Origin: Planctomycetota bacterium | GTDB taxonomy: Bacteria > Planctomycetota > Phycisphaerae > WQYP01 | Assembly (NCBI GenBank): GCA_021851715.1 | Contig: JAJZCR010000005.1 | Span: forward strand, 2,329 to 66,328 | Length of the DNA stretch: 64,000 nt | Direction: 5' to 3' | Shown: positions 402 to 57,676 of the stretch, piece after piece | Position numbering within the stretch: the first letter of the stretch is position 1 | How the letters are laid out: every line of letters begins with the position of its first letter | Notes under the pieces: generated by a model | Seen by the model: the letters and a program-made list of their open reading frames with translations, nothing else | What the model was told of the DNA's origin: nothing | Database searches by the model: none | Position numbers and translations under genes: made by a program

Positions 402-1352
402 TTAAATGTGCATCATCCGGGCGAGCATGGCGGCCACAGCCACCACCAGAGCCAGCCCTAAAAAAGCGGTAATGCGAAACAGCCGCAGTTTGGCCAGCGA
501 GCTTTCGACCGCGGTAATCAGCATAATGGCCCCGAGAACTTTCAGCAGCACCAGAGGAATCGCCAGGACGACAGCGGCGGGCGCTTTTCCGGCGGCCAGC
601 CCCCAGGGCGCGATGAGCACGTTGAGGAACACGCACAAGAGCACAAAAAATTTCATGCAGCCGCCCCATTTCACCAGGGCCGCGCCGGCCCCGGAAAATT
701 CCAGCGATTTGGATTCATCGATCATCGCCAGTTCAAAGTGACCGGAGGGATTGTCCACCGGTATTTTGCCGGTTTCCGCCAGGATCAGCATGAAAAATGC
801 GATCGCGATGAGCACGTGCGACGGATCAAAAAAATTGGCGAAGGGATGAATCCAGGTTTGCTGGACGATGTAGGGAATGGTCGAATTGGCCACGAAACAC
901 ACCGTGAAAAATACCACCATGAACACCGGCTCGGCCAGAAAGCCAACCATGCGGGTGCGGCTGGCACCCATGGCACCGTAGGGATTGGCGCTATCCACCG
1001 CGGCCAGGGCCGCAAAAAAACCGGCCAGGGCCAGTATAAATCCCGCACCCAGCATGTCTCCCATGAACGCAAAAAACAGCGGATAACTGGTGAGCACCGG
1101 AATCAGCAGCGTTACCACGATTGGGGCGGCGAACACCAGGTACGGCGTGAGCCGGAAAATCCACGTGCTTTGATCGGAGAGCACCTGATCTTTACAAAAG
1201 AGCTTCCAGATGTCGCGGTACACCTGAAAGATGCTTGAACCGTGCTTGGATTGCACCCGCTCCTTGAGACGGTTGAGCACGCCCACCGCCAGCGGCGATG
1301 CCAGCAGCACCACCAGCACCTGCAGAAGATTATATAAAATCATCCGTAGCAT
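402..1352 (-). CDS. NuoH/HycD/HyfC-family membrane subunit of a group-4 (formate hydrogenlyase / Ech-like) hydrogenase
   Basis: Polytopic membrane ORF. The N-terminus 'MLRMILYNLLQVLVVLLASPLAVGVLNRLKERVQSKHGSSIFQVYRDIWKLFCKD' and the internal 'ETGKIPVDNPSGHFELAMIDES' match the HycD/NuoH pattern. I moved the start to the ATG at 1350-1352 (track start 1406). Confidence 0.75.
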   Translation of the reverse strand: MLRMILYNLLQVLVVLLASPLAVGVLNRLKERVQSKHGSSIFQVYRDIWKLFCKDQVLSDQSTWIFRLTPYLVFAAPIVVTLLIPVLTSYPLFFAFMGDMLGAGFILALAGFFAALAAVDSANPYGAMGASRTRMVGFLAEPVFMVVFFTVCFVANSTIPYIVQQTWIHPFANFFDPSHVLIAIAFFMLILAETGKIPVDNPSGHFELAMIDESKSLEFSGAGAALVKWGGCMKFFVLLCVFLNVLIAPWGLAAGKAPAAVVLAIPLVLLKVLGAIMLITAVESSLAKLRLFRITAFLGLALVVAVAAMLARMMHI

Positions 1353-1617
1353 TGCCGCAGTTCTCCATGACAACAGACCCGTCCGCCAATTCAGTCCGGC
1401 GACCACGGCGTTGTGACGCGAATCAGGGATTTTTGGGGTGCAGCCAGATCAGGTGGAATCAGCCCCGACCCGCAACCGTCAATTCCCGGCCATCAATACC
1501 TCAACACAGATTGCTTTAAATCCGCATCGCACGCATCGACACTCGCCAGGAGTCATTAGCCCTGAGTTCTCAGGGCGGTTACGGGAGGACTCCATCTCCT
1601 TAACTTGTCCTTGAAAT

Positions 1618-2305: not shown

Positions 2306-5300
2306 ATGGCCCGCAATTCCAATCCAGCAACGACCGGGCAGATACCCGATGATTTGCGTGAATCGCTGCAAGGCGTGGCGAAGCGCCATCGCACGGTGCG
2401 TAGCAGCCTGGCGGCGTTGCGGGTGCTCTTCGTGAGTTTGGCGGTCGGCTTGGTTGCGGTTCTCCTGCTGGGGGAATTTACGCAAATGCCCTTGACGCTG
2501 CGCTGGGTGCTGGCCCTGCTGGTGTGGGTGGTGCCGGCGGGGTTATGTCTGCATGTGCTTATTCCAGCGCTGCGGCGGGTGAACATGCAGGTGGCTGCAG
2601 ATACCATGGATGCGATAAGGCCGCAGTCTCATGAGCTTTTTCTGAGTGCCGTAGAATTTGCTCAAAAACGACAGGACCCATTCGTGGGATCGCCGCAACT
2701 GGTCAACCACGTTATTAACCGGGCGGCCGATGATGCGCACGCTGTGGATCCTGGGCAAGCGGTTTCCGCGGATAAATTGATACGCTGGGCCTTTCTCTGT
2801 GCCCCGCTGGTGCTGATCTGGGCCATCCTTTGGCCACTGATGCCGCAAACATTAACCTTGGGCGTGCAAAGGACGGTGTTCCCCTGGATGGTGGCTACCG
2901 CACCGCCAATGACTGGGCCGCGGCATTCGATCAAGGTGGAACAAGGGCCGGCCATTACTTTCTTCGAGAAGCGGTATATTTTTCCAGCGTATACCGGGCT
3001 ACCGGAGAAAACTGTTCGTGGCCACAACGGAGCGATCCACGGGCTGTCCGGTTCACGTGTCCAGGTGATTATCCATACCACCGAGCCGTTGGCAGTAGGC
3101 AGCCGGCTGGTGGTAAACCCAAGTGGAGGTCAACCGGACACGCTGCCGCTGACGCGTTATGGTCCGCTGGCGTATGCGGCGAAGCTGATGTTGACGCACA
3201 ACGCCACTTATGCGGCAGTGCTGGTGAATCAACTTGGCGTCCAAATGGCCGGGAAGCAGGTGTGGCCGGTGACGGTAGATGCGGTTCCGCCGCCGACGAT
3301 CCATATTCTCACCCCCGCTTTAACCGTGCGGGTAAGGCCTGATGATTTGGTGCCGGTGCAATTCATCGCCACCGACATCTATGGACTTTCGGCCATCCGG
3401 GCTTTGCTCTGGACAGGTAATTCTGCCGTACGAACCGTGAATATCGCCCTGCCGGGCACGCCAGGCAAGGTGATTCAAAGCAATTGGACAATTTCGGTGC
3501 CACAGCAACTGCAAGCTGCCGGCCGGACCGATGCCCACACGATTTATTATAAACTTGAGGCCTTGGATTGCGCCCAGCCACAGGCCCATATTGCCATGAC
3601 CGCCCGGCATGAGCTAATCGTGGATACCCACTTGCAGCACAGCTATCAAACCCGGCAGGATAACAAATTATGGATGTCGTTGCGGCAAGCAATTTTGCAG
3701 GCGTTAATCGCGGTAAAAGCGGGCCGTGCCCAGGCCCGGGCTTTAGTCCGCTGGCCCGCATACATGGCGGTTGATCCGTTACGCAAGGCGGCGGTGGCCG
3801 GTGTGGCGGTGCGAGTGGTGCGGACGGGTCGAACGCTGGCAAACCAGGCCAAGACCATGTTGGAGACTGATTTTGGTGCGGTAGCAGCGCGTGCTATTGG
3901 CATTGCCCACGGTCCGATGCACGTGGCCGCCAATGATCTGGCGCGAACCGGGCTGGCGGCGGATCAAGCCGGGGGCACCCGCATGCCTCGATTGGCCCGG
4001 GCCAGCACGGTGGCACTCCAGCGGACACAAGCGTCACTGCGACGGCTGCTGCACGCCCTGGACCAAGCCAAGACTCGTGAGGCTTTGAAAAATTTACTAA
4101 CCCGGTTGGCCCGGCGACAGCGTTCCATCGCCCAGAGGCTATTGGACGGCAGTTCCCCTCACCATGCTTACCACGACCAGCAGGCCCTGGCCCAACAATT
4201 GCAGCAACTGCTGCGGCAACATCCCTCACTGCAGAATCCCGTCGCGCAGCAAATGACGGGACAAATCAACCAGTTAGCCAAAAAAATAGCTTCCATTGCC
4301 GCCCGGCAGGCGGCAGAGGATATGGATTTACATCCCAATCTTCTTCGACAAGCCCAGCAGACTGCGTTGGGGCATCTGGCCAACCAGCAGCAACTTTTGA
4401 ACCGACAAATAACACGTTTCAACCAACGCTATAAACCGGCGATTGCCACAGCGGCAGCGCAGCCGGTTACCGCAGCGATGATGCAAACCGTAAGTCACGC
4501 TCTGAACAGCCCCGGCGATGCCGCCGTGGCCCGGGAAGGGCGCAACAACATCGTGAAAACCCTGCGGTCTATGGCCAGGCAATTAGACCGGTATGCCAGT
4601 CAGGCGGATACGCCTGCGGCCAGGCAACAGTCCCGTCAAGTGGAGCATAATCAAGTAACCGCGGATCAACTTTCGCGACAGGTTCAGGCCGCCGCAGCCA
4701 CTCTACAACAAGGAGAATCAACAAACGCTCTGCATCGCGCTGTGCGGGCAGCGGATGCCATTGGGCGGCAGGTGCGTAACATGCTCAATGAAAACCCTGT
4801 GGACCAGGAGCGGGCTGATTTGCTGCAAGCCCGGGCCGATGCCAGGCATGCTGTAGAACAAACCATGCATGGATCCGGCAATGCCGCGGAGAGTTTATTA
4901 AAACAGGCTTATCACCAATTGGCGAAGGCCATACGGGAACAGGTAGCGCAGCTCGAATCGCAGCGGAGTTTGGCTCAGCAGGCAACCGCGGCAGCCATGC
5001 AGGCCCGAACCCTGGCTAGTCGGCAGGCCGCCCTGGCCACACAGACGGCCAAGGCCCATAAAACACCGACTCCGCAGGCGATCTCAAGCGCCCAGCACCA
5101 AACCGCCAATGCCATTGCAGAGGCCATTGCCCGGGAACGGAAATTACAACAGGAGGCCATGGCCGGTGCCCCGAATGTGGCCCAGCACCTGAAAGCAGCT
5201 CTGACCCAAATGCAGAGAGCCAACACGGCACAGGCTCAGGCAGCCGCGGACCAATCCGCCCATGATCAGGCAGGCTCGCAGGCCAATCAAGGCCGGGCCT

Positions 5301-34953: not shown

Positions 34954-36522
34954 GTGAATAGCAAGAACGAAGAAGGCAGGGCCGCTTCCAATGCCATCCC
35001 AGCCGCGGCCTCGTGCGCCATCGTGATTTTCGGCGCCACCGGCGATTTGACGGCGCGCAAGCTGATTCCCGCCATTTATAATCTGACACGCGATGGGGGG
35101 TTACCGCGGTCCGCAGTGGTAATCGGCTTTGCCCGTCGGCCCAAAACCGATGAACAATTCCGGCAGGAACTGCTGGACGGTCTGAACAAATTTTCGCGGT
35201 CGCGCCCGGTGGATTTGCAGCTATGGCAGGATTTATCCAGCCGTATTTTTTATCATCAAAGCACGTTTGAAGATGCTGCGGGCTATCGCAGTCTGGCCCA
35301 GCGGCTGCTCAAGCTGGATCAAACCCACGGCACCGGCGGGCGGCGGCTGTATTATCTTTCCACCAGCCCCGTGGAATTCGGCACCATTGTGGATCAACTG
35401 CTGGAAACAGGGCTCGGCAACATCGACCCATTCAGCAGTGCGGCGTGGCGGCGGATTATTGTGGAAAAGCCGTTCGGTCGCGATCTGCAAACCGCCCGCG
35501 ATTTGAACACGCGCATCAATCGTGTATTTGACGAATCGCAGGTGTATCGCATTGACCATTACCTGGGCAAGCAGACGGTACAAAATCTGCTGGTGTTTCG
35601 ATTTGCCAACGGCATTTTTGAACCCATCTGGAACCGCCGCTATGTGGATCATGTGCAGATTACCGTGGGTGAAACCCTCGGTGTGGAAGGACGTGGCGGC
35701 TATTTCGAAACTGCCGGTACGTTGCGCGACATGGTGCAAAACCACCTTATGCAACTTCTAGCTCTGGTGGCGATGGAACCGCCGGTGGCATTGGATGGCG
35801 ATGCCATTCGCGATGAAAAACTGCGTGTACTCAGGTCCATTCCGCTCTTCGGCGGCAAGGAGGTGGCCGAGCGGACCATTCGCGGGCAATACACCTCCGG
35901 ACAGGTTAACGGCCAGCCCGTGATCGGGTATCTGCAGGAGCGTGGCGTGCAGCCGGAAAGCACCATCGAAACCTATGCGGCGGTGAAACTCTTTATTAAC
36001 AATTGGCGCTGGCACGGAGTGCCATTTTATCTGCGCAGCGGCAAATTAATGAAGCGGCAGGGCTCGGAAGTGAACATCCATTTTAATTCCGCACCGGGCG
36101 TGCTTTTTAATGCCCAGGCCAATCGCGTGTCGCGCAATGTGCTGACCCTGCGCATTCAACCCGGCGAGGGAATCTCGTTGCTGATCAACGCCAAGCGACC
36201 GGGTACGGCCACCAAAATCGCCCCTGTTCACATGGATTTTGAATACCATGAAGCCTTCGGCAGCTATTCGCCGGAAGCCTATGAACGGCTGCTTTTGGAT
36301 GCCATTCTCGGCGATTCGACGTTATTTATCCGCCGCGATGAAGTGGAAAGTTCCTGGGCTATTATCGACGGCATTGAACAGGGCTGGGAGCAGGGTTTAT
36401 CACCCCTGACCCGGTACGAACCGGGAACCTGGGGCCCGGTGGAAGCGGATGCGCTGTTGGCCCAGGATGGCCGGTTGTGGGACGCCCTGGGTTCGCACGA
36501 TCGGGATGGGTTTCCCCAGTAA
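34954..36522 (+). CDS. zwf: Glucose-6-phosphate 1-dehydrogenase
   Basis: Motifs '[15 protein letters not shown]', '[14 protein letters not shown]' and 'EKPFG'. GTG start at 34954. Confidence 0.92.
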
Positions 36523-48310: not shown

Positions 48311-49732
48311 TCACCGGCCAGGGACACGTAGTTCGCCGTGGACAGTTTTAACCGGAGGCCGCTCCATCGGCTCGGCAATGATGGCGTCGATATCCGCAAT
48401 CCGTTGATCCAGATCGGTTTGCAGAGCGACCATGGTCTGCTGGATTTGCAGCATGGTCTGGTCCAAACGAAGCTGCTGGCCGATGGAAGCCCGGCCTTGT
48501 TGGTAAGCCGCACGTGTCAGAGCTGCCATCATCCGCCGGCGAGGCAGAATATGGCAGCGAAAAAGTATTAATTGGCGGTGATCATTGCGCATAGCAATCA
48601 GATCGATGAGGAGTCGGGCGGCCAGAATGTTATATTGACCGCGCCAGGCGGCGCGGGTGGCGTGCAACTGGTCTCGTGCCTGCCGGATGGAGGCATTGAT
48701 GGCTTGATAGCGCAAAGCCGGAACTATCAGCGCCCCGGTGAAATTTTGTACGGTGCCATCCAGCGACGTCGACAGGCCGATGTCGAAATTGGGGATATAT
48801 TGCATTGCCGCACGGCGAATGCTGATACGGCCCGCCGCAGCCAGCTTACGCAGCCCCTGGAGCTTCGGATTCCGATTCACCGCCGTAGCCAATAGCTGAT
48901 TGTTGCTCACGGCAGGCACCGAGAGTTCGGCAATGGCTTGCGGAGGCTTCAGCGGCATATCGGCCGGTCGGCCCAAAAGGGCGTTAAGGGCAGCCAATTG
49001 CCGGGGCAATTGGTGGGTCAGCGCCACAATTCGGCTGCGCAGCAAATCAAGGCGATTTTGTCCGGAGAGCCATTGTTGCGGCCTGACGGTGCCGGTTTTT
49101 ATTCCGGCATGATTCAGGGCAATCGCACTTTGCAGCAGGGATTGCTGTCGCTTGGCCAGTTGCAGAATTACCGCAGTTCGCGCGTAGTCATACCAGGCAT
49201 CGAGCACGTTGCGGCGAAGTGCAAAGCGACGGGCCTGATAATTCCATTCGGCGGCCACAGCCCGCAACAGTGCGATCCTGGCATCGGCGGATATCTTGGA
49301 CGGCCATTGGATATCCGCACTGCCCATATTACCCGCTCCGACAGTGGTGTTGGACAAGGAAGCCGCCCCGCGGCTTAACAAGGTACCCGCATTAAGCATC
49401 AGGGTGGTGGTTTGAGTTCCGGCCTGCGGAATGTTTTCAATGGCAACGCGCCACTGCCAATAGGATTGCTGCACCTGCGGGCTATTGCGCAGCGCGTAAT
49501 GCACCAACTGGCGAGGTGTAGCGTTGAATGGCAAGGGCGGCGGATGGCGCTGGGCGAAAGGCTTGGCAAAGGCCTTCCCGGCGACTTGAGCTTGCCGGCG
49601 CAGTTTGCCTTCACCCGCCGGATGCACCGTACAGCCTGCCAGGCCAGTGAGGGCCGCCACCACCATGATCGACAGCCATGGACAGTATCCGTGCCAGTGA
49701 CGCATGACCTTGGGCCGGGGTGAAATCAACAT
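48311..49732 (-). CDS. Outer membrane efflux lipoprotein (TolC/CusC/CzcC family)
   Basis: Lipobox 'LTGLAGC' and two OEP repeats. An ATG overlaps the RND stop by one base (TGATG), so I start it at 49732 (alternative ATG at 49705). Confidence 0.8.
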   Translation of the reverse strand: MLISPRPKVMRHWHGYCPWLSIMVVAALTGLAGCTVHPAGEGKLRRQAQVAGKAFAKPFAQRHPPPLPFNATPRQLVHYALRNSPQVQQSYWQWRVAIENIPQAGTQTTTLMLNAGTLLSRGAASLSNTTVGAGNMGSADIQWPSKISADARIALLRAVAAEWNYQARRFALRRNVLDAWYDYARTAVILQLAKRQQSLLQSAIALNHAGIKTGTVRPQQWLSGQNRLDLLRSRIVALTHQLPRQLAALNALLGRPADMPLKPPQAIAELSVPAVSNNQLLATAVNRNPKLQGLRKLAAAGRISIRRAAMQYIPNFDIGLSTSLDGTVQNFTGALIVPALRYQAINASIRQARDQLHATRAAWRGQYNILAARLLIDLIAMRNDHRQLILFRCHILPRRRMMAALTRAAYQQGRASIGQQLRLDQTMLQIQQTMVALQTDLDQRIADIDAIIAEPMERPPVKTVHGELRVPGR

Positions 49733-52700
49733 CATATATGGGATCCTGTTTCGAAATTGGATTCTGGTGGAACCATGGTCGAAGCGCTGCATTGTTTTTG
49801 AAGCTGCCACCCCATCACGATGTAATACAAGGCCGGCAGCACCAGCAATTCCAGAATAAACGCGGTACCCAGGCCCCCTATCATGGGTGCCGCCAGGCGG
49901 CGCATTACCGAGCCACCCGCACCTGTGGCCCACAGCAACGGCGTCAAGCCGATGAGCGCGGCACAGGCGGTCATGGTCTGCGGGCGGATGCGCCGCACGG
50001 CCCCGGTATAAACGGCGTCAAAGAGATCCTGTTGGCTTTCAAGTCGGCCATCGTTCCGCGCCTGCTGCAAGCTCACATCCAGATACAGCACCAGCACCAT
50101 TCCCATTTCCACCGTTAATCCGCACAGGGCGATAATGCCCACCCAGACCGCCACCGACAGATGATAGTGCAGGAAATACAAGGTCCATGTCGCTCCCACC
50201 AGGCCGAAAGGAATGGATAAAAGCACGCCCAGCACGCGGCCCACGCTGCCGGTGGATACCAGCAGCAGAATGAAAATAATCAATAAAACCATGGGCACCA
50301 CCAGTTCAAGGCGGGCATTGGCCTCCTGAATCTGTTTGTACAAGCCGACCCACTGGTACGTGTAACCTGCAGGCAGCGTGATCCGGCGGCGGATGGCAAC
50401 GTTGGCCCGATTCACGTAACCGACGGTGTTGCCGGTGGTGGTGGTGATATTGACGTAATTGACCGTCATGGCGTTTTGGCTGTCGATCTCGGGTGGCCCG
50501 GCGGCATAACGGATCTGGGCGATCATACCCAGCGTGATCACACTGCCGTTGGGCGTGACGATGGGAAGGTCCTGAAGTTCCGTCGCGCTGCCGCGAAACT
50601 TGCGAAAATAGCGGATATTGATAGGCAGCCGCTGCAAACCCAGCACCATGGTGCTCACCGGATCGCCGCCGACGGCCATGGTGATGATGCGTTGAACGGC
50701 GGCCTGGGTCAGACCGTAGCGCATGGCCTGCAAGCGGTGAATATGGATATCCAGGTAATAACCTCCCAGTGTCTGGTTGGCGATCGCGCTGCCGGTACCA
50801 TCAACTCCTTGAAGCACGCGGGCGATTTCGTTGGACACCCGGCCAAGCACCTTGAGATTTTCGCCAAAGATGCGCATGCCCAGCAGGGTCTTGCTGCCGG
50901 TGTTGGCCATGTTGACGCGATTGGCGATGGGCATGGTCCAATAGGCGGCAAAGCCGGGAATTTTCAAAGCCTCGTTGAGACCCTCATGATGCTTGTTCCG
51001 GGCATCGGTCCATCTATGGAGAAGCTGCTGCAGAGAAAGCCGCGCATGCCCCGGCCAGAAAGTGCGCCGCAGCGGCCATGAAAGCCAGTGCGGCCAGTTG
51101 TCATAAAACCGCGCCACCGGAACCATGGGCCATTGGGTCCGGCGTTTAAGCCGGATGATGGTATCAATCATGTTCAGCGGCGCGGAATCGGTGGCGCTAT
51201 CCGCCCGGCCGATCTGCCCCCAGACGCTTTTCACCTCTGGAAAACTTTTGATAATTTTGTCGCTTTGCTCCAGCACGTAACCCGCCTCGCCGACACTTAT
51301 ACCAGGATACGTGGTTGGCATATATTCCAGATCGCCTTCATATAGCGGCGGCGTAAATTGCGTACCCAGGCGGCTCCATGGCCAGTAAATGGAAACGCAC
51401 AGCGCCGCAGCTACCAAAAGCAGCAGCCACCGCCAGACCATGGCCGCGTTAAAGACCGGACGAAATCCCCGCTGCAGCCACTGGCTTACCAGATTGTGCT
51501 GTTCGTGGATAATCTTCTGCGGCATCACCAGCATCACCGCCAGAACCACCCAGCCCAGCACCAGCCACCATTGGTAGCGTGCTAATTCGTCACTGTGACT
51601 GGCGGCGTTATACAAGCCGATCGCCGGCACGATGATGATCGCCAGCGCCGCGGCCCCCTGCATCCACCAGGGCCACTGCCCTGGGAACAACCGTGGTGTA
51701 ACAAAATAAATCATCAAAATGGGGACGACCGTGATGGAAAGCACCGCCGCGGCACCGATGGCAAACGTCTTGGTCAGAGCCAGCGGGCCAAACATTTTGC
51801 CGCTTTCGCCCGGTAAAATAAAGATCGGTAGAAAACTGATGGTGATAATCAGCAGGCTGAAAAACAATGCGGGACCCACTTCTCCGGCCGCCTCCAGCAT
51901 GATCATGGTCCGGGGACGCGGCGGGCGGCCTTTTGCCACCTGCTGCTCGTCACGGTTGATATGCTGGTGGGCGTTTTCAATCATCACGATGGAGCTGTCC
52001 ACCACCACGCCGATGGCGATGGCAATACCGCTGAGGCTCATGATATTGGCGCTCACGCCCAGCCAATAGAGGATCGCCAAGCTGATGATCATGCTGGCGG
52101 GAATTACGACAATGGCCACCAGGCCGCTGCGTCCGTGCCATAAAAACAGCAGGCACACGGCCGCCACCACAATCATTTCCTCCAGCAGCGTATCGGAAAG
52201 CGTATGAATGGAACGGTTAATGAGGTTGTCGCGGTCGTAACCGGTCTTGAAAAATACGCCAGGAGGCAGACTCGTGGACATGGCGGCGATTTTCTTTTTG
52301 ACCCGTTGCACCACCCGATACGTGTCTGCGCCGGAACGCACCACCACAATGCCGCCGACGACCTGCCCGCGACCGTTCCAATCCAATATTCCCTGGCGCT
52401 GCCCGCCGGCAATCTGCACCGTGGCCACGTCATGCAACGGAATCGGCGTGCCATCAGGGGCTTGCCCCACGGGTACGTTTTCCAGTTGCTTGATATTCCG
52501 CAAATATCCCCGGCTGCGGACCAGATACTGCAATTCGCTTATGTCCACGGTTGCGCCGCCCACATCGTTATTGGACTTCTGAATTGCGCCGGCCACCTGC
52601 CCCACACCCAGGTGGTACGCCCGGAGCCGGTTCGGATTCACCACCACCTGATATTCCTCGGAAAAGCCACCGATCCCCGCCACTTCCGCCACTCCCCGTA

Positions 52701-53373
52701 CCGCGTCCAACTGATAACGCACAAACCAATCCTGCAGGGACCGCAACTGCCCCAGGTTGATGTTGCTGGCAACCAGCGGCTTACCCGACAGAGGCGATTT
52801 TCCGGGGCGGTCAAACGCCCGCACCAGCACCAGGCGGGAGCGGTGCGAAAGCGGCGCAGAATCCCGGTGGGGGTACCATCGATTGGTCTGCGGATCATGC
52901 CAGATTCCTCCGGGGTAACTGCCGCAATACCAGCCGGGATATAACACGTATTGATACGCCCACCCCGCCCCGGTGGCGTCCGGGCCAAGTTCCGGGGTTA
53001 CCCCTTTGGGTAGCAACGCTTTGGCTGAGTCCAGATACTCCAGCACCACATTGCGGGCCCGATACAAATTGGTGCCGTTCTTAAAAACCACCGTCACCAG
53101 GGAATAATCGAACATGCTTTGGCCGCGCACGGCCGTGACATTGGGCACGTGAATAAGCTGGGTTTCCAACGGATACGTCACCTGTTTGTCCACCACTCCC
53201 GGCGTCTGGCCGGGGTAATTCGTAAGCACCAGCACCTGTATGTCGGACAGATCGGGCACAGCGTCAAGCTTGCTGTGAAAAGCGGCCCAACCGGTCGCCG
53301 CCATCACCATCAGAGCCACCAGCAGCACCGGAAGGCGGTTGTGGATCGAGAATTCTATGATCTTGCGTATCAT
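49732..53373 (-). CDS. Heavy-metal-efflux (CusA/CzcA-type) RND permease, unusually long (1213 aa)
   Basis: 'MIRKIIEFSIHNRLPVLLVALMV', 'VPDLSDIQVLVLTNYPGQ', 12-TM topology and the typical 'GIAIGVVVDSSIVMIEN'. Confidence 0.9.
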   Translation of the reverse strand: MIRKIIEFSIHNRLPVLLVALMVMAATGWAAFHSKLDAVPDLSDIQVLVLTNYPGQTPGVVDKQVTYPLETQLIHVPNVTAVRGQSMFDYSLVTVVFKNGTNLYRARNVVLEYLDSAKALLPKGVTPELGPDATGAGWAYQYVLYPGWYCGSYPGGIWHDPQTNRWYPHRDSAPLSHRSRLVLVRAFDRPGKSPLSGKPLVASNINLGQLRSLQDWFVRYQLDAVRGVAEVAGIGGFSEEYQVVVNPNRLRAYHLGVGQVAGAIQKSNNDVGGATVDISELQYLVRSRGYLRNIKQLENVPVGQAPDGTPIPLHDVATVQIAGGQRQGILDWNGRGQVVGGIVVVRSGADTYRVVQRVKKKIAAMSTSLPPGVFFKTGYDRDNLINRSIHTLSDTLLEEMIVVAAVCLLFLWHGRSGLVAIVVIPASMIISLAILYWLGVSANIMSLSGIAIAIGVVVDSSIVMIENAHQHINRDEQQVAKGRPPRPRTMIMLEAAGEVGPALFFSLLIITISFLPIFILPGESGKMFGPLALTKTFAIGAAAVLSITVVPILMIYFVTPRLFPGQWPWWMQGAAALAIIIVPAIGLYNAASHSDELARYQWWLVLGWVVLAVMLVMPQKIIHEQHNLVSQWLQRGFRPVFNAAMVWRWLLLLVAAALCVSIYWPWSRLGTQFTPPLYEGDLEYMPTTYPGISVGEAGYVLEQSDKIIKSFPEVKSVWGQIGRADSATDSAPLNMIDTIIRLKRRTQWPMVPVARFYDNWPHWLSWPLRRTFWPGHARLSLQQLLHRWTDARNKHHEGLNEALKIPGFAAYWTMPIANRVNMANTGSKTLLGMRIFGENLKVLGRVSNEIARVLQGVDGTGSAIANQTLGGYYLDIHIHRLQAMRYGLTQAAVQRIITMAVGGDPVSTMVLGLQRLPINIRYFRKFRGSATELQDLPIVTPNGSVITLGMIAQIRYAAGPPEIDSQNAMTVNYVNITTTTGNTVGYVNRANVAIRRRITLPAGYTYQWVGLYKQIQEANARLELVVPMVLLIIFILLLVSTGSVGRVLGVLLSIPFGLVGATWTLYFLHYHLSVAVWVGIIALCGLTVEMGMVLVLYLDVSLQQARNDGRLESQQDLFDAVYTGAVRRIRPQTMTACAALIGLTPLLWATGAGGSVMRRLAAPMIGGLGTAFILELLVLPALYYIVMGWQLQKQCSASTMVPPESNFETGSHI

Positions 53374-54710
53374 GGCATGGCCTTTCGCTTCGGTGACATC
53401 CGGGGAATAAAGCGGGCCTTGATCTCATTGAGTTGCGATTCCACATCCATCAGGAACTGGCCGCTGGTAACCACTTTTTGGCCCCGTTTCAGACCGGAGA
53501 GAACCTGTACCAGGCTGTGCTCACCGCTCAAACCTGTCTTAACCGCGACCGGATTAAAATGACCGGGCTGCACTTCCACAAACGCCAACTCGCCGGTGCC
53601 GGTGTTCATTACCGCCACACGCGGAACCAGGAGGCATCGAAGAACCGGCTTGGTATGGATATCCGCCAGAGCATACATACCGGGACGCAATTGGCCGGCG
53701 CGATTATTCAAAATCATGCGGACCGTGGTGTTATGGAACTGCGGGTTCTCATACGGATCAATGAAGCTGATCTTTCCCGTAAAGGTTTGTCCGGGCAGCG
53801 CCGCCAAGGTGGCCGTCACACGCTGGCCCCGGCGAATCCACGGCAATTGATTGTCAAACACCCGCACATTGAGCCACAAAGTGCCAAGGCTTTCGATCCG
53901 CATGGCGGTCGTGCCGGTTTTGATGAAGGATTTCTGCCGGACCCGCACCGCCGTGAGTGTGCCGGCAGCCGGGCTGTAAAAGGTGATGTAGGTTTGGGCA
54001 TGAAGCGTTTTCTCAATGTTTTTGATTTGCACGCCATTGACGCCCAGAAATTTCATCCGCTGTTCCATGGATCGCACCAGTTCTGCCGTGTCGCGGGTGG
54101 CTCCGGCATCGCGGGATTTTCGCAAGGCGAGCACCGCCTTCCGCGCCGCAATAAGTTCTTCCTCCGCAGTCACGATAGCCGGGCTGTACAGCGTGAATAG
54201 CGGTTGACCACTGGTGACGGCGGTACCGTTGGTGGTGGCGTAAAGCCTGCCAATCCAGCCATCGGTGCGCAAATTGATACTGAAGCGTTCCGGGGCGGCG
54301 GCCTGCAGATAGCCGACCGCCCGGATGGTTTTCCGCAGCGCACCCTCCGTCACCTGCGCGGTTTGAATGCCCATATCCTGAACTATGGCTGGATCCACAT
54401 GGACCTGCCCCGCCGGGGCGAGCTTCCGTGTGGAAGCGTATACGGGAATTAATTTCATACCCATGGAACTTATGCCGGGCTTGTTGGAGATAGACGATGG
54501 TCCCACCATCGGATCCCACCAATACAGGATCCGGCGTTTGGAACCATGGGCCGCCTGCGTCGATGGCTCTCCACCGGCAACCCTTGCGGTACCGTTTTTT
54601 AAGCCCATCCATCGGCCGATCGGGCGATGATTCCACGCCCCAATGGCAATCCCGATGAGTCCGCCCATGGCTATTGCTAAAATGACCAGCAGTGTTTTGA
54701 GAACCTTCAT
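53370..54710 (-). CDS. RND efflux periplasmic adaptor (CusB/CzcB-like membrane fusion protein)
   Basis: Signal anchor 'MKVLKTLLVILAIAMGG', then a lipoyl/beta-barrel pattern ('GQPLFTLYSPA', 'FVEV..G.F..V.VKTG'). ATG at 54708-54710 after AGAGGA. 4-nt overlap with the RND gene. Confidence 0.85.
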   Translation of the reverse strand: MKVLKTLLVILAIAMGGLIGIAIGAWNHRPIGRWMGLKNGTARVAGGEPSTQAAHGSKRRILYWWDPMVGPSSISNKPGISSMGMKLIPVYASTRKLAPAGQVHVDPAIVQDMGIQTAQVTEGALRKTIRAVGYLQAAAPERFSINLRTDGWIGRLYATTNGTAVTSGQPLFTLYSPAIVTAEEELIAARKAVLALRKSRDAGATRDTAELVRSMEQRMKFLGVNGVQIKNIEKTLHAQTYITFYSPAAGTLTAVRVRQKSFIKTGTTAMRIESLGTLWLNVRVFDNQLPWIRRGQRVTATLAALPGQTFTGKISFIDPYENPQFHNTTVRMILNNRAGQLRPGMYALADIHTKPVLRCLLVPRVAVMNTGTGELAFVEVQPGHFNPVAVKTGLSGEHSLVQVLSGLKRGQKVVTSGQFLMDVESQLNEIKARFIPRMSPKRKAMP

Positions 54711-55307
54711 GGCATCCTCTGTTGAAGGGTGACAAATGCTCGGCACCAGAAGCGGTGCCGCTGTACGCCGATACATAACATATTTATACAGATATGATTA
54801 TATAATAAGTACGCACTTGCTGTGCAGAGGAGAAAGTGTAAAATCCGCGCCACCAGGCTGGGGCCTGTGGTATTGGGAAACTGAATGCAGGAGGAAAACG
54901 CTTGTCACCGATGGCCGGACGAATTTCAGAGGAACCGGAAATGGCACCATGCTGGTGGGCGCGGCGGCAGTGGCCATTGGAAGTGCATGCACCACGATGC
55001 AGACCGGAGGTTGCCGATTTTCACCGCCGGTGCCCGAGCACGCACGGTGCATCCCGCCGGACCTGGCCGTCATCATCATGGAATTCATCATTCCGCAGCG
55101 GCAACAGGCGCTCACTTCGCGGCCACGCGCAGCCCGGCACACCCCCGTGGTCACCACGGTCGGAAACGCCACGCCCACGATCAACGCCGGTACCATCAGC
55201 CGGCGGATCGACCAAAATAATTTCCTGAGGATGGTCATATTGGCTCGCAAAACTTGTGCATCAACGGTCCGTGCCTGTTTTTTTAGCGGTCCGGCCTGCG
55301 GGGGCTC

Positions 55308-55700
55308 TCAACGATGCAATTGATCCTGCAGTTTCACGGCCATCCACATGCCGCCCATTTTCCACCATATCTTCATCGGAAAAATCGTATCATCCGCCGG
55401 ATCCATCTTGCCCTTCACTTGGATGGTTTTCCCCACATACGCGGCCAACGGACCCGGATTGGTCAAAAGCGTCCACGCCTTGCCTTTAATCAGAATGCCG
55501 GCCGGCATGCCACTGGCCAAACACTTTTTGCCGCAGGTTTTGCCATGCGCTCGGCCTTTCATTTGCATGGTGCTGTAACAGGCCATATCCAACAATTCAC
55601 CCTTGACGGTTACTTTTTTTAGCATGGTCGCATGGGCCGCCATACCCGCCCCTGCTACCAGCATAACGACCGTCACGATCGAAAAAGTCATTTTGTGCAT
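55308..55700 (-). CDS. Small secreted Met/Cys/His-rich protein (candidate periplasmic metal-binding protein)
   Basis: AGGAG 8 nt upstream of the ATG at 55700. Signal peptide 'MHKMTFSIVTVVMLVAGAGMAAHA'. Mature part is about 105 aa and includes 'DMACYSTMQMKGRAHGKTCGKKC' and 'WWKMGGMWM'. Confidence 0.6.
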   Translation of the reverse strand: MHKMTFSIVTVVMLVAGAGMAAHATMLKKVTVKGELLDMACYSTMQMKGRAHGKTCGKKCLASGMPAGILIKGKAWTLLTNPGPLAAYVGKTIQVKGKMDPADDTIFPMKIWWKMGGMWMAVKLQDQLHR

Positions 55701-55774
55701 GCGTCCAGCTCCTAACGAAAAACATCCTTATTCTGCTCGTCGCCGGCACCATGTCCGCGACTCCATAGCTTACA

Positions 55775-55800
55775 ACGAGACCCAAGGCCTAAAAAGTTCA
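55775..55800 (-). promoter_or_regulatory. ECF-type promoter candidate P2 (TGAAC-N18-CGT) upstream of the small periplasmic protein gene
   Basis: The minus strand reads TGAACTTTTTAGGCCTTGGGTCTCGTTGT, 75 nt upstream of the ATG at 55700. It is near-identical in layout to P1 at 57651-57676. Confidence 0.45.
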
Positions 55801-56097
55801 AAACCCTTGATTTTTAATTTTCCATGTTTGTCCTGAGGCGTCGCACTCAGTCGCCAATCTCCCTGTTACCCTGCACAGCAACCTGAAACATCCAATGAAT
55901 AAACGAGTTAGGGTCGCATCCAGCCAAATCACCGGTAACCAGGATTTCGGCACGGCGATCGGCCGGATGCCGGTATGGACATGACCGCGGCAGGGCTGTT
56001 ACGAACATCGCCAAAACTCATGTATTGCGACAAGTGATGCATGGCGGGAAAACCCGGAGGCGGGTGGCTCCCGCGACGCAGTAGCCGTGGATGAATT

Positions 56098-56694
56098 TCA
56101 TGCTGTCGGCTCTTGAAGATGCCGGCCGCTTTCTGCCAATCGATCGGCCAGCAACAATCTTCGCAAAATCGCCCGGCCACGGCTCAGTCGCGAGCGAATG
56201 GTTCCCACCGGAACATCCAAAATCTCCGCCGCCACCGCATAGTCATAACCACCGATATCGACGAGTAAAATAGCCCAGCGCATGTCTTCGGGCAGTCCCC
56301 GGATGGCCTGTATCAGTTGCGCGTCGGACACACATTCCATTAATTCATCGGGATGGTCAATCTCATCGGGTGCCGGCACCGCAGGCGAGGCCGCCCGCGC
56401 GGCGGGTTCCGCAGCCAAAGCCTCCAAACTGATAACCGGTCCTTCGCCCGCGTGCTTCCGCCACCGGTCCGTCCAGGTATGACGCAAAATGGTCAATAGC
56501 CACGCCTGAATGCCATTCTGGTCCTGAAGCGTGCGCAGCGCGCGGCTGGCCTTAAACAGCGTCTCCTGGGCAAGATCCTCGGCTTCGGCGAGATTTTGGG
56601 ATAACAGCGTGGCGCTGCGCAGCACCATGGCTCGGTGGGGCCACACAAGGCGATAGAAATCAACACAGGTATCTTGCGATTCCGGAACGGCCAT
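56098..56694 (-). CDS. ECF (group IV) sigma-70 family RNA polymerase sigma factor
   Basis: Region 2 'AEDLAQETLFKASRAL..W.AWLLTILRHTWTDRWR' and region 4 'GYDYAVAAEILDVPVGTIRSRLSRGR'. Confidence 0.88.
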   Translation of the reverse strand: MAVPESQDTCVDFYRLVWPHRAMVLRSATLLSQNLAEAEDLAQETLFKASRALRTLQDQNGIQAWLLTILRHTWTDRWRKHAGEGPVISLEALAAEPAARAASPAVPAPDEIDHPDELMECVSDAQLIQAIRGLPEDMRWAILLVDIGGYDYAVAAEILDVPVGTIRSRLSRGRAILRRLLLADRLAESGRHLQEPTA

Positions 56695-56919
56695 TCCCCT
56701 TCACTTTGGGTTCACCTTCCATGTTGATTTTATACCCGACTGCCGCGGCAAACCAATCTGCCCAGATCGCCGGATTGGGCCCAAATAGCTGAGGGTGCCG
56801 ATGTTTGTTAAATTAAAGTGTGTCTTTAGCGTGATGGGAGGAAAGAACCTATACGCCCTTTTCCCATTCGAATCATCCGGCGTTGGCGGCGTTGTCCATG
56901 GCAGGTCCAACCAGGCAAT

Positions 56920-57573
56920 TCAGTCCCGCAAGTGTGACGCCATCGCCAGCAATGCCGCGGGCGAACTTCGCCCCATCAGACACATCCAATGCCCGTGGCG
57001 TTTGGCCTCAACCAGGTTGAGGTCATGGGTCCGCACCACCTGATATTGAACCCCCTGGAAATGCACCCTCTGTCCTCTGGGACCGGCAATATGGTTGCCC
57101 GTGAGCACCACCACCGGGTGGGATCCCGACGAAAGCATCGCACATGAAACCTGCTGATGTCGAATTTCAGTCATGTAACACGAATTCATCCTGGCCATGT
57201 GGCAGGTTTTAAGCCCCGGCAGGCATATACAGGCCTGGGCTATCGCCGCAGCCGCCTTCGACTCCGTAAACCGGCCAGCACTGACAGGCGAACGGGCCAT
57301 GGCAGACCGGTACGCGTGCGTTAAATCGGCCAGCGAGGCCCGGGTCGGGACGGCCGAGAGGATGGAAAACAACACCAACCCCATGGCCAAAAACGCTGCG
57401 GCTCCGGCCACCAGGCCCACACCAAATTGGCGTAAATTCCTCCGCGGCAACACAATGGCCTGCCTCAGCCGTTGATCCAACGCCCCCGTATCCACCGGAA
57501 TCGTGGCCAGCCGTCGCAGGCGACGCGTCAGTACCGCGTCAAAGGCATTATCCTTGGGATCAGGCGTAGGCAT
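56920..57573 (-). CDS. Single-pass membrane protein with Cys/His/Met-rich extracytoplasmic domain (candidate anti-sigma factor / sensor)
   Basis: GGAG upstream of the ATG at 57573. A cytoplasmic segment of about 50 aa, then TM 'VGLVAGAAAFLAMGLVLFSILSAV', then an outer domain with 'ACICLPGLKTCHMARMNSCYM' and 'HGHWMCLM'. The function is inferred from context only. Confidence 0.45.
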   Translation of the reverse strand: MPTPDPKDNAFDAVLTRRLRRLATIPVDTGALDQRLRQAIVLPRRNLRQFGVGLVAGAAAFLAMGLVLFSILSAVPTRASLADLTHAYRSAMARSPVSAGRFTESKAAAAIAQACICLPGLKTCHMARMNSCYMTEIRHQQVSCAMLSSGSHPVVVLTGNHIAGPRGQRVHFQGVQYQVVRTHDLNLVEAKRHGHWMCLMGRSSPAALLAMASHLRD

Positions 57574-57650
57574 GGGCCACTCCGTGTGTTGCGAGCCGTC
57601 AAATCAGGCGTACAAACTGGCTATCTGCACACCCGCCCACGTGAAGATAA

Positions 57651-57676
57651 ACGCAAATGGCGGCCAAAAAAGTTCA
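57651..57676 (-). promoter_or_regulatory. ECF-type promoter candidate P1 (TGAAC-N18-CGT) upstream of the anti-sigma-like gene / ECF sigma gene
   Basis: The minus strand reads TGAACTTTTTTGGCCGCCATTTGCGTTTA, 78 nt upstream of the ATG at 57573. Confidence 0.45.

Follow-up and report, generated by a model that had tools for sequence, protein, structure and literature searches.

Two closely similar sequences on the minus strand of a 64,000-nt stretch of DNA from a planctomycete of the Phycisphaerae (contig JAJZCR010000005.1 of assembly GCA_021851715.1; the whole stretch is called the window below) are very probably promoters read by the sigma factor of extracytoplasmic function (ECF) type encoded next to them. 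One of them, P1, would drive the gene for a 217-aa membrane protein, called the partner below and most likely the cognate anti-sigma factor. The other, P2, would drive a Cus-type operon for metal efflux. The case for this view is largely comparative. The motif common to the two sites recurs in front of the equivalent genes in distant relatives, which supports the idea that it is the target of this group of sigma factors and not a generic or chance match to GAAC and CGT.

P1 and P2 in the window and in related loci

P1 occupies positions 57648-57676 of the minus strand and reads TGAACTTTTTTGGCCGCCATTTGCGTTTA, while P2, on the same strand, occupies 55772-55800 and reads TGAACTTTTTAGGCCTTGGGTCTCGTTGT. 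Both sequences are present as an earlier, preliminary description of this DNA had given them. The -35 element, TGAACTTTTT in each case, lies at 57676-57667 in P1 and at 55800-55791 in P2, and the -10 element, CGTT, at 57653-57650 and at 55777-55774. Each site therefore has the parts that mark an ECF-type promoter: an AAC-type -35 element, a CGT-type -10 element, a fixed spacing between them and a gene that the whole faces. Both are co-directional with the genes behind them. From the end of CGTT to the ATG there are 76 nt for P1 (ATG at 57573) and 73 nt for P2 (ATG at 55700), and the 78 and 75 nt previously claimed agree with these values, having been counted from the T of CGT. Since the geometry of SigH promoters puts GTT at -11 to -9 (PMC6411747), transcription is predicted to start at about 57641 for P1 and at about 55765 for P2 (minus strand).

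The two sites share TGAAC, GGCC, CGTT and a gap of 18 nt between TGAAC and CGTT. A run of five T's had also been claimed for both, which is right for P2, but P1 has six. The preliminary description had found by eye no further copy of TGAACTTTTT, and an exact search of both strands of the window indeed gives P1 and P2 only. (With one mismatch allowed there are 9 matches, where 2.85 are expected.) The same two sites, and no others, answer to the extended pattern TGAACTTTTTNGGCC-N8-CGTT with at most three mismatches, a pattern expected 0.07 times in the window and reaching two matches in 0 of 100 shuffles. A search for variants of the form GAACT(T)-N-CGT again returned P1 and P2 alone. Other matches to GAAC...CGT lie at 4503 and 50693 on the plus strand and at 36230, 15037, 13447 and 11981 on the minus strand. 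They were dismissed because they lack the T-rich extension and are no more frequent than chance would have them (about 6 expected).

Conservation among close orthologues was judged from six distinct Phycisphaerae loci, whose sigma factors are 76-83% identical. All six keep the order 217-aa gene, sigma gene, 130-aa gene, 147-aa open reading frame (ORF), cusB, cusA, and they keep it despite different upstream neighbors, which are AraC and PhyH genes in locus L001 and valS in L003. P1 accompanies the 217-aa gene even where the neighbors differ in this way. Both P1 and P2 are conserved in the six loci: conservation is 100% over the 7 nt of the -10 region, 83-93% over the -35 block, 72-78% over the spacer and 69-76% over the remaining intergenic DNA. 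In all five orthologous loci compared, P2 takes the form GGAACTTTT-N14-TCGTTGTAAG, with an 18-nt gap and with GGAAC, not TGAAC, at its start. The identical 18-nt gap claimed for the two sites thus holds for P2 (6/6 loci) but not for P1, where the gap is 17 nt in four orthologous loci and 18 nt in two. TGAAC, likewise claimed to be common to both, is so in the window but not at the P2 sites of the orthologues.

The DNA downstream of the promoters has some features of its own. A block reading AGTTTGTACGC (about 57625-57610, minus strand) lies in the predicted 5' untranslated region, some 30 nt 3' of the -10 element of P1, and is conserved in the six orthologous loci. In the leader behind P2 it is GTAAGCTNTGGAGCCGC that is conserved among orthologues, and the lengths of both leaders, about 65-70 nt, are conserved as well. 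Compared to its orthologues, the window has about 150 extra nucleotides 3' of the stop codon of the sigma gene (56097-55950, minus strand) and about 120 extra, AT-rich nucleotides 3' of the stop codon of the partner gene (56900-56790, minus strand).

A wider view is provided by a genome scan with the sigma alignment, which returned 80 loci. Their ORFs were searched with hidden Markov models (HMMs) made from the alignments of the partner family and of the sigma factors. The 44 loci whose sigma HMM score exceeded 195 bits were taken as the family, nearly all of them labelled Phycisphaerae, Tepidisphaerales or Planctomycetota. Shuffled sequences served as one control, and the other was a set of 35 loci of other ECF groups, from other phyla, that scored below 170 bits. 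The motif [GT]GAAC-N17/18-CGT[CT] was sought immediately 5' of the sigma gene, on its coding strand. It is found there in 33 of the 44 family loci (35 after two fused ORF calls are mended), where shuffles would give 0.24, and in 1 of the 35 loci that represent other ECF groups.

In the remaining nine family loci it is the partner gene that the motif directly precedes. In seven of the 44 (L029, L031, L033, L041, L048, L061 and L065) it lies between the sigma and partner genes, either within the 3' end of the former or immediately behind it, and none is found upstream of sigma. In L014 and L044 the motif precedes the partner gene, and a stretch with an ECF site on the opposite strand parts that gene from the sigma gene.

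Sites with a gap of 18 nt number 106 in the family, as against 27 with a gap of 17 nt, and the latter look mostly random. The consensus of the 106 is aTTGAACCTtt...tCGTT. GGCC, which P1 and P2 have in common, is not conserved across the wider family. It follows from this consensus that the run of T's is part of an extended -35 element, that 18 nt is the canonical gap of the group, and that GGCC is incidental.

Could the shared sequence be an operator, bound by a metal-responsive response regulator or a regulator of the MerR type, and not a promoter at all? Cus operons are classically under the control of the CusRS two-component system (PMC10141476), and the types of site that proteins bind are not separable by sequence alone. 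But the motif is a pair of short, asymmetric blocks; the sequence between them varies while its length is fixed, and they always face a gene, at a constant distance. This is the geometry of a promoter, not of a palindrome or a direct repeat. Furthermore, sigma is the only regulator encoded in the locus or in the flanking genes examined. An operator therefore seems very improbable, and P1 and P2 are treated as promoters in what follows.

The motif is also tied to efflux. Genes for Cus-type pumps of the resistance-nodulation-division (RND) class are found within 4 kb in 29 of the 44 family loci, compared to 1 of the 35 others. The motif lies upstream of the Cus-type operon in 17 of the 25 cases that could be tested, where shuffles would give 0.26, and in most relatives the motif lies directly 5' of the gene for CusB or for the outer-membrane efflux factor (OMF). 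Two cases serve to illustrate how far this goes. In L014/L015 identity is down to 46% for sigma and 31% for the partner (65% for the small 130-aa protein), and L014 has four GGAAC-N18-CGT[TC] sites, every one of them upstream of a gene. The targets are the partner-family gene; a 116-aa gene that leads to the small protein, a 151-aa ORF and cusBA; an 81-aa gene; and a gene for a 618-aa protein with a YHS domain. In L018/L019, where sigma is 49% and the partner 26% identical, L018 has TGAAC-N18-CGTC right after the sigma stop codon, 5' of the partner gene, and a second copy 5' of a divergent OMF-cusB operon.

The sites in the L014/L044 clade that face the YHS-domain gene and the 81-aa gene, the latter divergent from the sigma gene, are at 3202 and 4954 in L014 and at 3969 in L044, all on the minus strand. 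By these sites, the regulon of that clade exceeds the partner gene and the pump.

A few loci turn up under unexpected names. Contigs with a sigma/partner pair of the planctomycete type occur in metagenome-assembled genomes (MAGs) labelled Bacillota (L023 and L026) and Methylococcaceae (L030), and an ECF locus occurs in a MAG labelled Bathyarchaeia (L071). These labels are probably due to contamination during binning.

The sigma factor, its partner and the efflux operon

The sigma gene (56098-56694, minus strand) encodes a protein of 198 aa. Its only Pfam matches are Sigma70_r2 (6e-13) and Sigma70_r4_2 (1.8e-14), with no region 1.1 or 3, which places it in group 4, the ECF sigma factors. TIGR02937 (sigma70-ECF) is matched at 58 bits (cut-off 42.9), and matches in NCBIfam are generic ECF ones only, below the cut-offs of equivalogs. 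The nearest solved structure is that of SigH from Mycobacterium tuberculosis (5zx2, E 7e-24). The preliminary description was thus right to call this protein an ECF sigma factor. Homologues number 1060 at E<=1e-10, the close ones from MAGs of Phycisphaerae, and for the genes of the locus generally the closest homologues come from MAGs of Phycisphaerae and Planctomycetota.

The gene behind P1 (56920-57573, minus strand) encodes the 217-aa partner, a putative single-pass membrane protein from an unannotated family of proteins of about 220 aa. It matches no family in Pfam or NCBIfam, and the only name the family bears in the source databases is "hypothetical protein". The family is not small: a profile search gave 217 cluster representatives at E<=1e-3 and 118 at E<=1e-10. 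A gene of this family adjoins the sigma gene in 44 of the 44 family loci and in 0 of the 35 loci of other ECF groups, the adjacency and co-inheritance with sigma that one looks for in an anti-sigma factor. In the family the sigma gene usually comes first and the partner gene second, and the two coding regions often overlap.

Conserved within the partner family are an N-terminal motif, RRLxRLxxLPVDTxxLD, the single transmembrane helix and, in the periplasmic part, across 60 members, C132, C198 and the column adjacent to C132, which is Cys in at least 90% (Y133 in the protein of the window). An AlphaFold 2 (AF2) model of the 217-aa protein, with a mean confidence (pLDDT) of 84, has helices at 7-24 and 30-39, a transmembrane helix at 51-72, two periplasmic helices and a beta domain of seven strands. 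The cytoplasmic helices, 7-24 and 30-39, are modelled with a pLDDT of 88-90. The predicted topology resembles that of a short class-II-type anti-sigma factor. CnrY, a protein of this kind, is single-pass with a two-helix cytoplasmic domain of 45 aa (PMC6851896). Because of this CnrY-like cytoplasmic topology and the strict co-occurrence with the sigma group, the partner is most likely the cognate anti-sigma factor. Searched against the PDB at E<=10, the profile of the family brought up no CnrY or CnrX chain. Weak Pfam matches among the 60 members are to DUF3379, MucB_RseB_C and DUF3619, each in 2-4 of them (MucB_RseB_C in four).

Behind P2, on the minus strand, come a pair of short ORFs and then the genes for CusB, CusA and the OMF. 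The five are tightly packed, with no convincing terminator between them in the window. The first (55308-55700) encodes a 130-aa protein, predicted to be exported, and the second (54798-55250) is a conserved Cys/Met-rich ORF of 146-150 aa (CCRCGMMNSMMM), whose counterpart in orthologous loci, judged by position, is called as a gene of 146-151 aa. Neither product has a match in Pfam or NCBIfam. The AF2 model of the 130-aa protein (pLDDT 83) is a beta barrel, similar to an oligonucleotide/oligosaccharide-binding (OB) fold, with a disordered N-terminus that is hydrophobic and resembles a signal peptide. A search of the PDB with this model gave nothing significant, only weak resemblances to OB folds. 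The protein has 17 homologues, and in an alignment C41, H52, C56 and C60 are invariant. Its role may be that of an analogue of CusF, binding metal in the periplasm as a partner of the pump. In L016 and L017 its homologues have unrelated surroundings that lack the motif, which means that membership of this regulon is not a constant feature of the small protein.

The next gene (53370-54776) encodes a CusB-like periplasmic adaptor. Its start codon is uncertain, the orthologues being 443-473 aa in length. The adaptor matches Pfam HlyD_D23 (5e-58) and, below threshold, HMBD; in NCBIfam the match to CusB, PRK09783 (2.8e-44), is below its cut-off and that to RND_mfp above. After it comes the gene for a CusA-like heavy-metal RND pump of 1213 aa (49732-53373), which scores 963 bits against TIGR00914 (CusA/CzcA; cut-off 701). 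Its best match in the PDB is Escherichia coli CusA (3k07), at E 1.6e-266, compared to 2.7e-109 for ZneA. E. coli CusA is shorter, about 1050 aa, and the two align in four segments, implying insertions at about residues 146-205, 565-619 and 750-794.

The gene for the OMF (48311-49933; Pfam OEP, 6e-19) comes last. The longest ORF shares some sequence with the end of cusA; translation probably begins near 49738, giving MMLISPRPKV ahead of a lipobox-like LAGC. A CusA-type pump, a CusB-type adaptor and an OMF are therefore encoded together, as in a CusCBA system. It had been suggested that P2 possibly reaches the RND genes, and this idea gains support both from the relatives in which the motif lies directly 5' of CusB or the OMF and from the close packing of the genes in the window.

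The proposed circuit and its alternatives

I propose that RNA polymerase carrying the ECF sigma factor reads an extended -35 element, [T/G]GAAC(C/T)TTT, together with a -10 element, (T)CGTT, that follows 17-18 nt after GAAC. At P1 it would transcribe the gene for the single-pass 217-aa protein. The cytoplasmic N-terminus of this protein, two helices in about 45 residues, would tether sigma at the membrane, and its Cys-bearing beta domain in the periplasm would be the sensor, for a signal that is most likely Cu(I)/Ag(I). At P2 the polymerase would transcribe as one operon the genes for the small OB-fold periplasmic protein, the Cys/Met-rich ORF, CusB, CusA and the OMF. Metal stress would free sigma and so lead to induction of the efflux pump. 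Freed sigma would also act through P1 on its own inhibitor, a negative feedback that shuts the response off, and probably on itself as well, for with no terminator between the partner and sigma genes P1 probably also reaches the latter. I infer that it is this sigma, rather than a paralogue, that binds the motif, that the 217-aa protein binds sigma, and that the signal is metal.

A number of observations weigh against this scheme. To begin with the motif itself, the bare form TGAAC-N18-CGTT is matched twice in the window where 0.49 matches are expected, and at least two matches are found in 11 of 100 shuffles. Taken alone, therefore, it is not significant in 64 kb, a point in favor of the view that the two sites are a chance resemblance or the remnant of a local duplication, without function. 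The extended pattern, however, is far too rare for that, and the sites are conserved in orthologues and recur at equivalent positions in distant relatives. The comparative data effectively refute this explanation.

A second point is that the motif could be read by another ECF sigma factor from elsewhere in the genome, either a paralogue or one acting by cross-talk. Some genomes hold two loci of the group (L023 and L026 in one MAG, L065 and L068 in another). The adjacent sigma would then have some other regulon. Elements of the GAAC/CGT type are common to many ECF groups (PMC13492112, Table 4), and the part of this genome that was inspected is 64 kb. On the other hand, the extended motif tracks this one group, as seen in the 33-35 of 44 family loci versus 1 of 35 others, and it stays beside the sigma/partner pair through rearrangements of gene order. 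A role for another sigma is accordingly unlikely.

The other adverse points concern the parts assigned to the partner, the metal and P1. Sequence searches of the PDB with the 217-aa protein and with the profile of its family gave noise only. Its best fold match, to the C-terminal domain of RseB/MucB, is weak (E about 1e-3, TM-score about 0.3), and among 60 members models of anti-sigma domains (zf-HC2/RsrA/RskA-like class I) are unmatched at E<=0.1. It is only the homology of the pump to CusA and the Cys/Met content of the accessory ORFs that point to Cu(I)/Ag(I) in particular. Finally, most sigma transcripts may come from somewhere other than P1, given the conserved box described next.

In the window a spacer of 225 nt parts the 217-aa gene from the sigma gene. 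Within it, 34 nt upstream of the sigma ATG, is a box reading TATAAAAT, part of a sigma-70-like element at 56727-56756 (minus strand) in which GGGTATAAAAT, at 56737-56727, is preceded by a possible -35 element, TTGGTT, at 56756-56751, with a spacer of 16 nt. The box lies in an island, GTCGGGTATAAAAT, common to the six orthologous loci. I take it as a hypothesis that this is a candidate housekeeping promoter of the sigma gene. With P1 in front of the partner gene and the spacer and box following, autoregulation of sigma depends on read-through. Such read-through from P1 is likely but unproven: there is no terminator or unusually stable hairpin to be detected in the 225-nt spacer (fold z-score 0.66), and in L040, which has the same gene order as the window, the gap between partner and sigma genes is only 45 nt, implying co-transcription. 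The preliminary description had sigma driving its own operon. The part of this that stands is P1 as a very probable promoter of the group's type 5' of the partner gene, while autoregulation of the sigma gene itself is something that I infer.

There is thus room for a refinement of the proposed circuit, more than for a full rival to it: sigma may be transcribed mainly from its own housekeeping-type promoter, with P1 serving essentially the anti-sigma gene, so that the loop is one that shuts the response off and not a classical positive autoregulation. The refinement would account for the conservation of the box, which would leave P1 mainly to provide feedback through the anti-sigma factor, and for the seven family loci with the motif between sigma and partner genes, as well as L014 and L044, where it comes before the partner. 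In L029, L031 and L041, with an ECF motif only before the partner gene, a conserved extended -10 element, TGGTATAAT, precedes the sigma gene.

There is also an experimental precedent. In Corynebacterium glutamicum, housekeeping promoters transcribe sigH-rshA and rshA by itself has a SigH-dependent promoter, presumably for rapid shut-off of the response (PMC3489674). The uninterrupted spacer and the short gap in L040 argue the other way, and so does the failure of the box in a simple scan for the sigma-70 consensus, owing to its weak -35 element. The housekeeping promoters of planctomycetes are poorly defined, which is a further reason for caution. All told, I would put the refinement at just short of an even chance.

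A bolder generalization is that the ECF group and the family of ~220-aa partners make up an undescribed module for sensing Cu/Ag, widespread in Phycisphaerae and Tepidisphaerales, in which the anti-sigma factor itself is the periplasmic sensor and which takes the place of CusRS at Cus-type pumps. In several lineages, that of the window included, the inhibitor would be on a dedicated promoter and sigma on a housekeeping promoter. The sensor would consist of a class-II-like clamp, one transmembrane helix and an RseB-like beta domain with a conserved CC...C site. I offer this tentatively, as an idea that has somewhat more against it than for it.

Resemblance to known systems

The regulatory principle itself is textbook for ECF sigma factors. 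Closest in logic is CnrYXH-CnrCBAT of Cupriavidus metallidurans, whose sigma factor, CnrH, belongs to ECF20 in the old classification and ECF291 in the new. As in the proposed circuit, an ECF sigma is paired with a single-pass anti-sigma factor that has a short two-helix domain, the regulator genes adjoin a heavy-metal RND (CBA) operon, and the anti-sigma gene precedes the sigma gene. Cnr also has two sigma-dependent promoters, cnrYp before the regulator operon and cnrCp before the pump operon (PMC6851896). Nevertheless, no component is detectably homologous, and CnrH is absent from the 17 PDB matches of the window's sigma at E<=1e-5. No gene in the locus resembles cnrX; the periplasmic domain is instead fused to the anti-sigma-like protein. 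The consensus of ECF291 promoters is ATACGC/CCCTCA (PMC13492112), whereas the motif here is TGAAC/CGTT, and the pump is of the CusA type, not the CnrA/CzcA type. For want of a CnrH match, a CnrX and a common consensus, the module of the window does not belong to the CnrYXH (ECF291) type.

Nearest by sequence and by type of promoter is M. tuberculosis SigH, from among the actinobacterial systems of the ECF12 type, SigH/RshA and SigR/RsrA. The anti-sigma factors of these systems, RshA and RsrA, are soluble proteins that bind zinc and sense redox state. The partner in the window, in contrast, is a membrane protein without a match to zf-HC2. The regulon of SigH and SigR deals with thiol-oxidative and heat stress, not with metal efflux. 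The wiring suggested here, an anti-sigma factor with a sigma-dependent promoter of its own and a sigma on a housekeeping promoter, is like that of SigH/RshA in C. glutamicum. The M. tuberculosis SigH motif is GGAAYA-N17-GTT, with strict spacing (PMC6411747); the dominant spacing in the present group, which is of another phylum, is 1 bp longer.

With respect to the genes controlled, the comparison is with CusRS-cusCFBA of E. coli. The window has a CusA, a CusB-like adaptor (its heavy-metal-binding domain below threshold), an OMF and a small exported protein possibly in the role of CusF. It has an ECF sigma and a putative anti-sigma factor in place of the CusRS two-component system (PMC10141476), and the flanking genes that were examined include none for a two-component system. 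The 130-aa protein has no match to the CusF family, and it has Cys and His rather than the CusF site.

RpoE-RseA-RseB and AlgU-MucA-MucB share with the proposed circuit an autoregulated ECF sigma and a single-pass anti-sigma factor, and the periplasmic domain of the partner has its weak fold match to RseB/MucB. The -35 element of RpoE and AlgU is of the GGAACTT type. In the window, however, the membrane protein itself contains the RseB-like domain, which in those systems is a separate periplasmic protein, and the partner does not match RseA or MucA by sequence. Where those systems have TCTGA/TCAAA as the -10 element the window has CGTT, and the target is a metal pump as opposed to envelope repair.

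Copper-responsive ECF sigma factors are known, CorE and CarQ, but according to two reviews they work differently (PMC6851896, PMC10141476). A literature search on Phycisphaerae, ECF and copper brought up nothing relevant. As far as could be determined, the sigma/anti-sigma family, its link to Cus efflux in Phycisphaerae and the promoter before the anti-sigma gene are uncharacterized. If the proposed circuit is correct, then [T/G]GAAC(C/T)TTT-N13/14-CGTT is a regulon signature for an uncharacterized ECF group, and a putative function can be given to a family of hypothetical proteins with 217 cluster representatives. Cus-type copper efflux in Phycisphaerae would appear to be controlled by a sigma/anti-sigma pair, where textbook control is by CusRS, and the CnrYXH paradigm would be extended to another metal and another phylum, with parts that are not homologous. 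Some of the Phycisphaerae MAGs of the group bear names that suggest mines or acidic sites.

Outside the module, the gene 5' of P1 (57814-59028, minus strand) encodes a 404-aa protein with the metalloprotease domain NF038122 (2e-43) and a C-terminal PEP-CTERM sorting signal. It is absent from the same position in L001 and L003 and is therefore not part of the module. The flanking genes are of the housekeeping sort: valS and genes for a LeuA-like synthase and ketoacyl synthases. Far from the module, at 1540-1608 on the minus strand, is a fluoride riboswitch (Rfam RF01734, 49.8 bits, compared to a gathering score of 34). The ORF that it lies upstream of, of 334 aa (402-1406, minus strand), matches Pfam NADHdh (NuoH-like), which is not what is typical of fluoride exporter genes.

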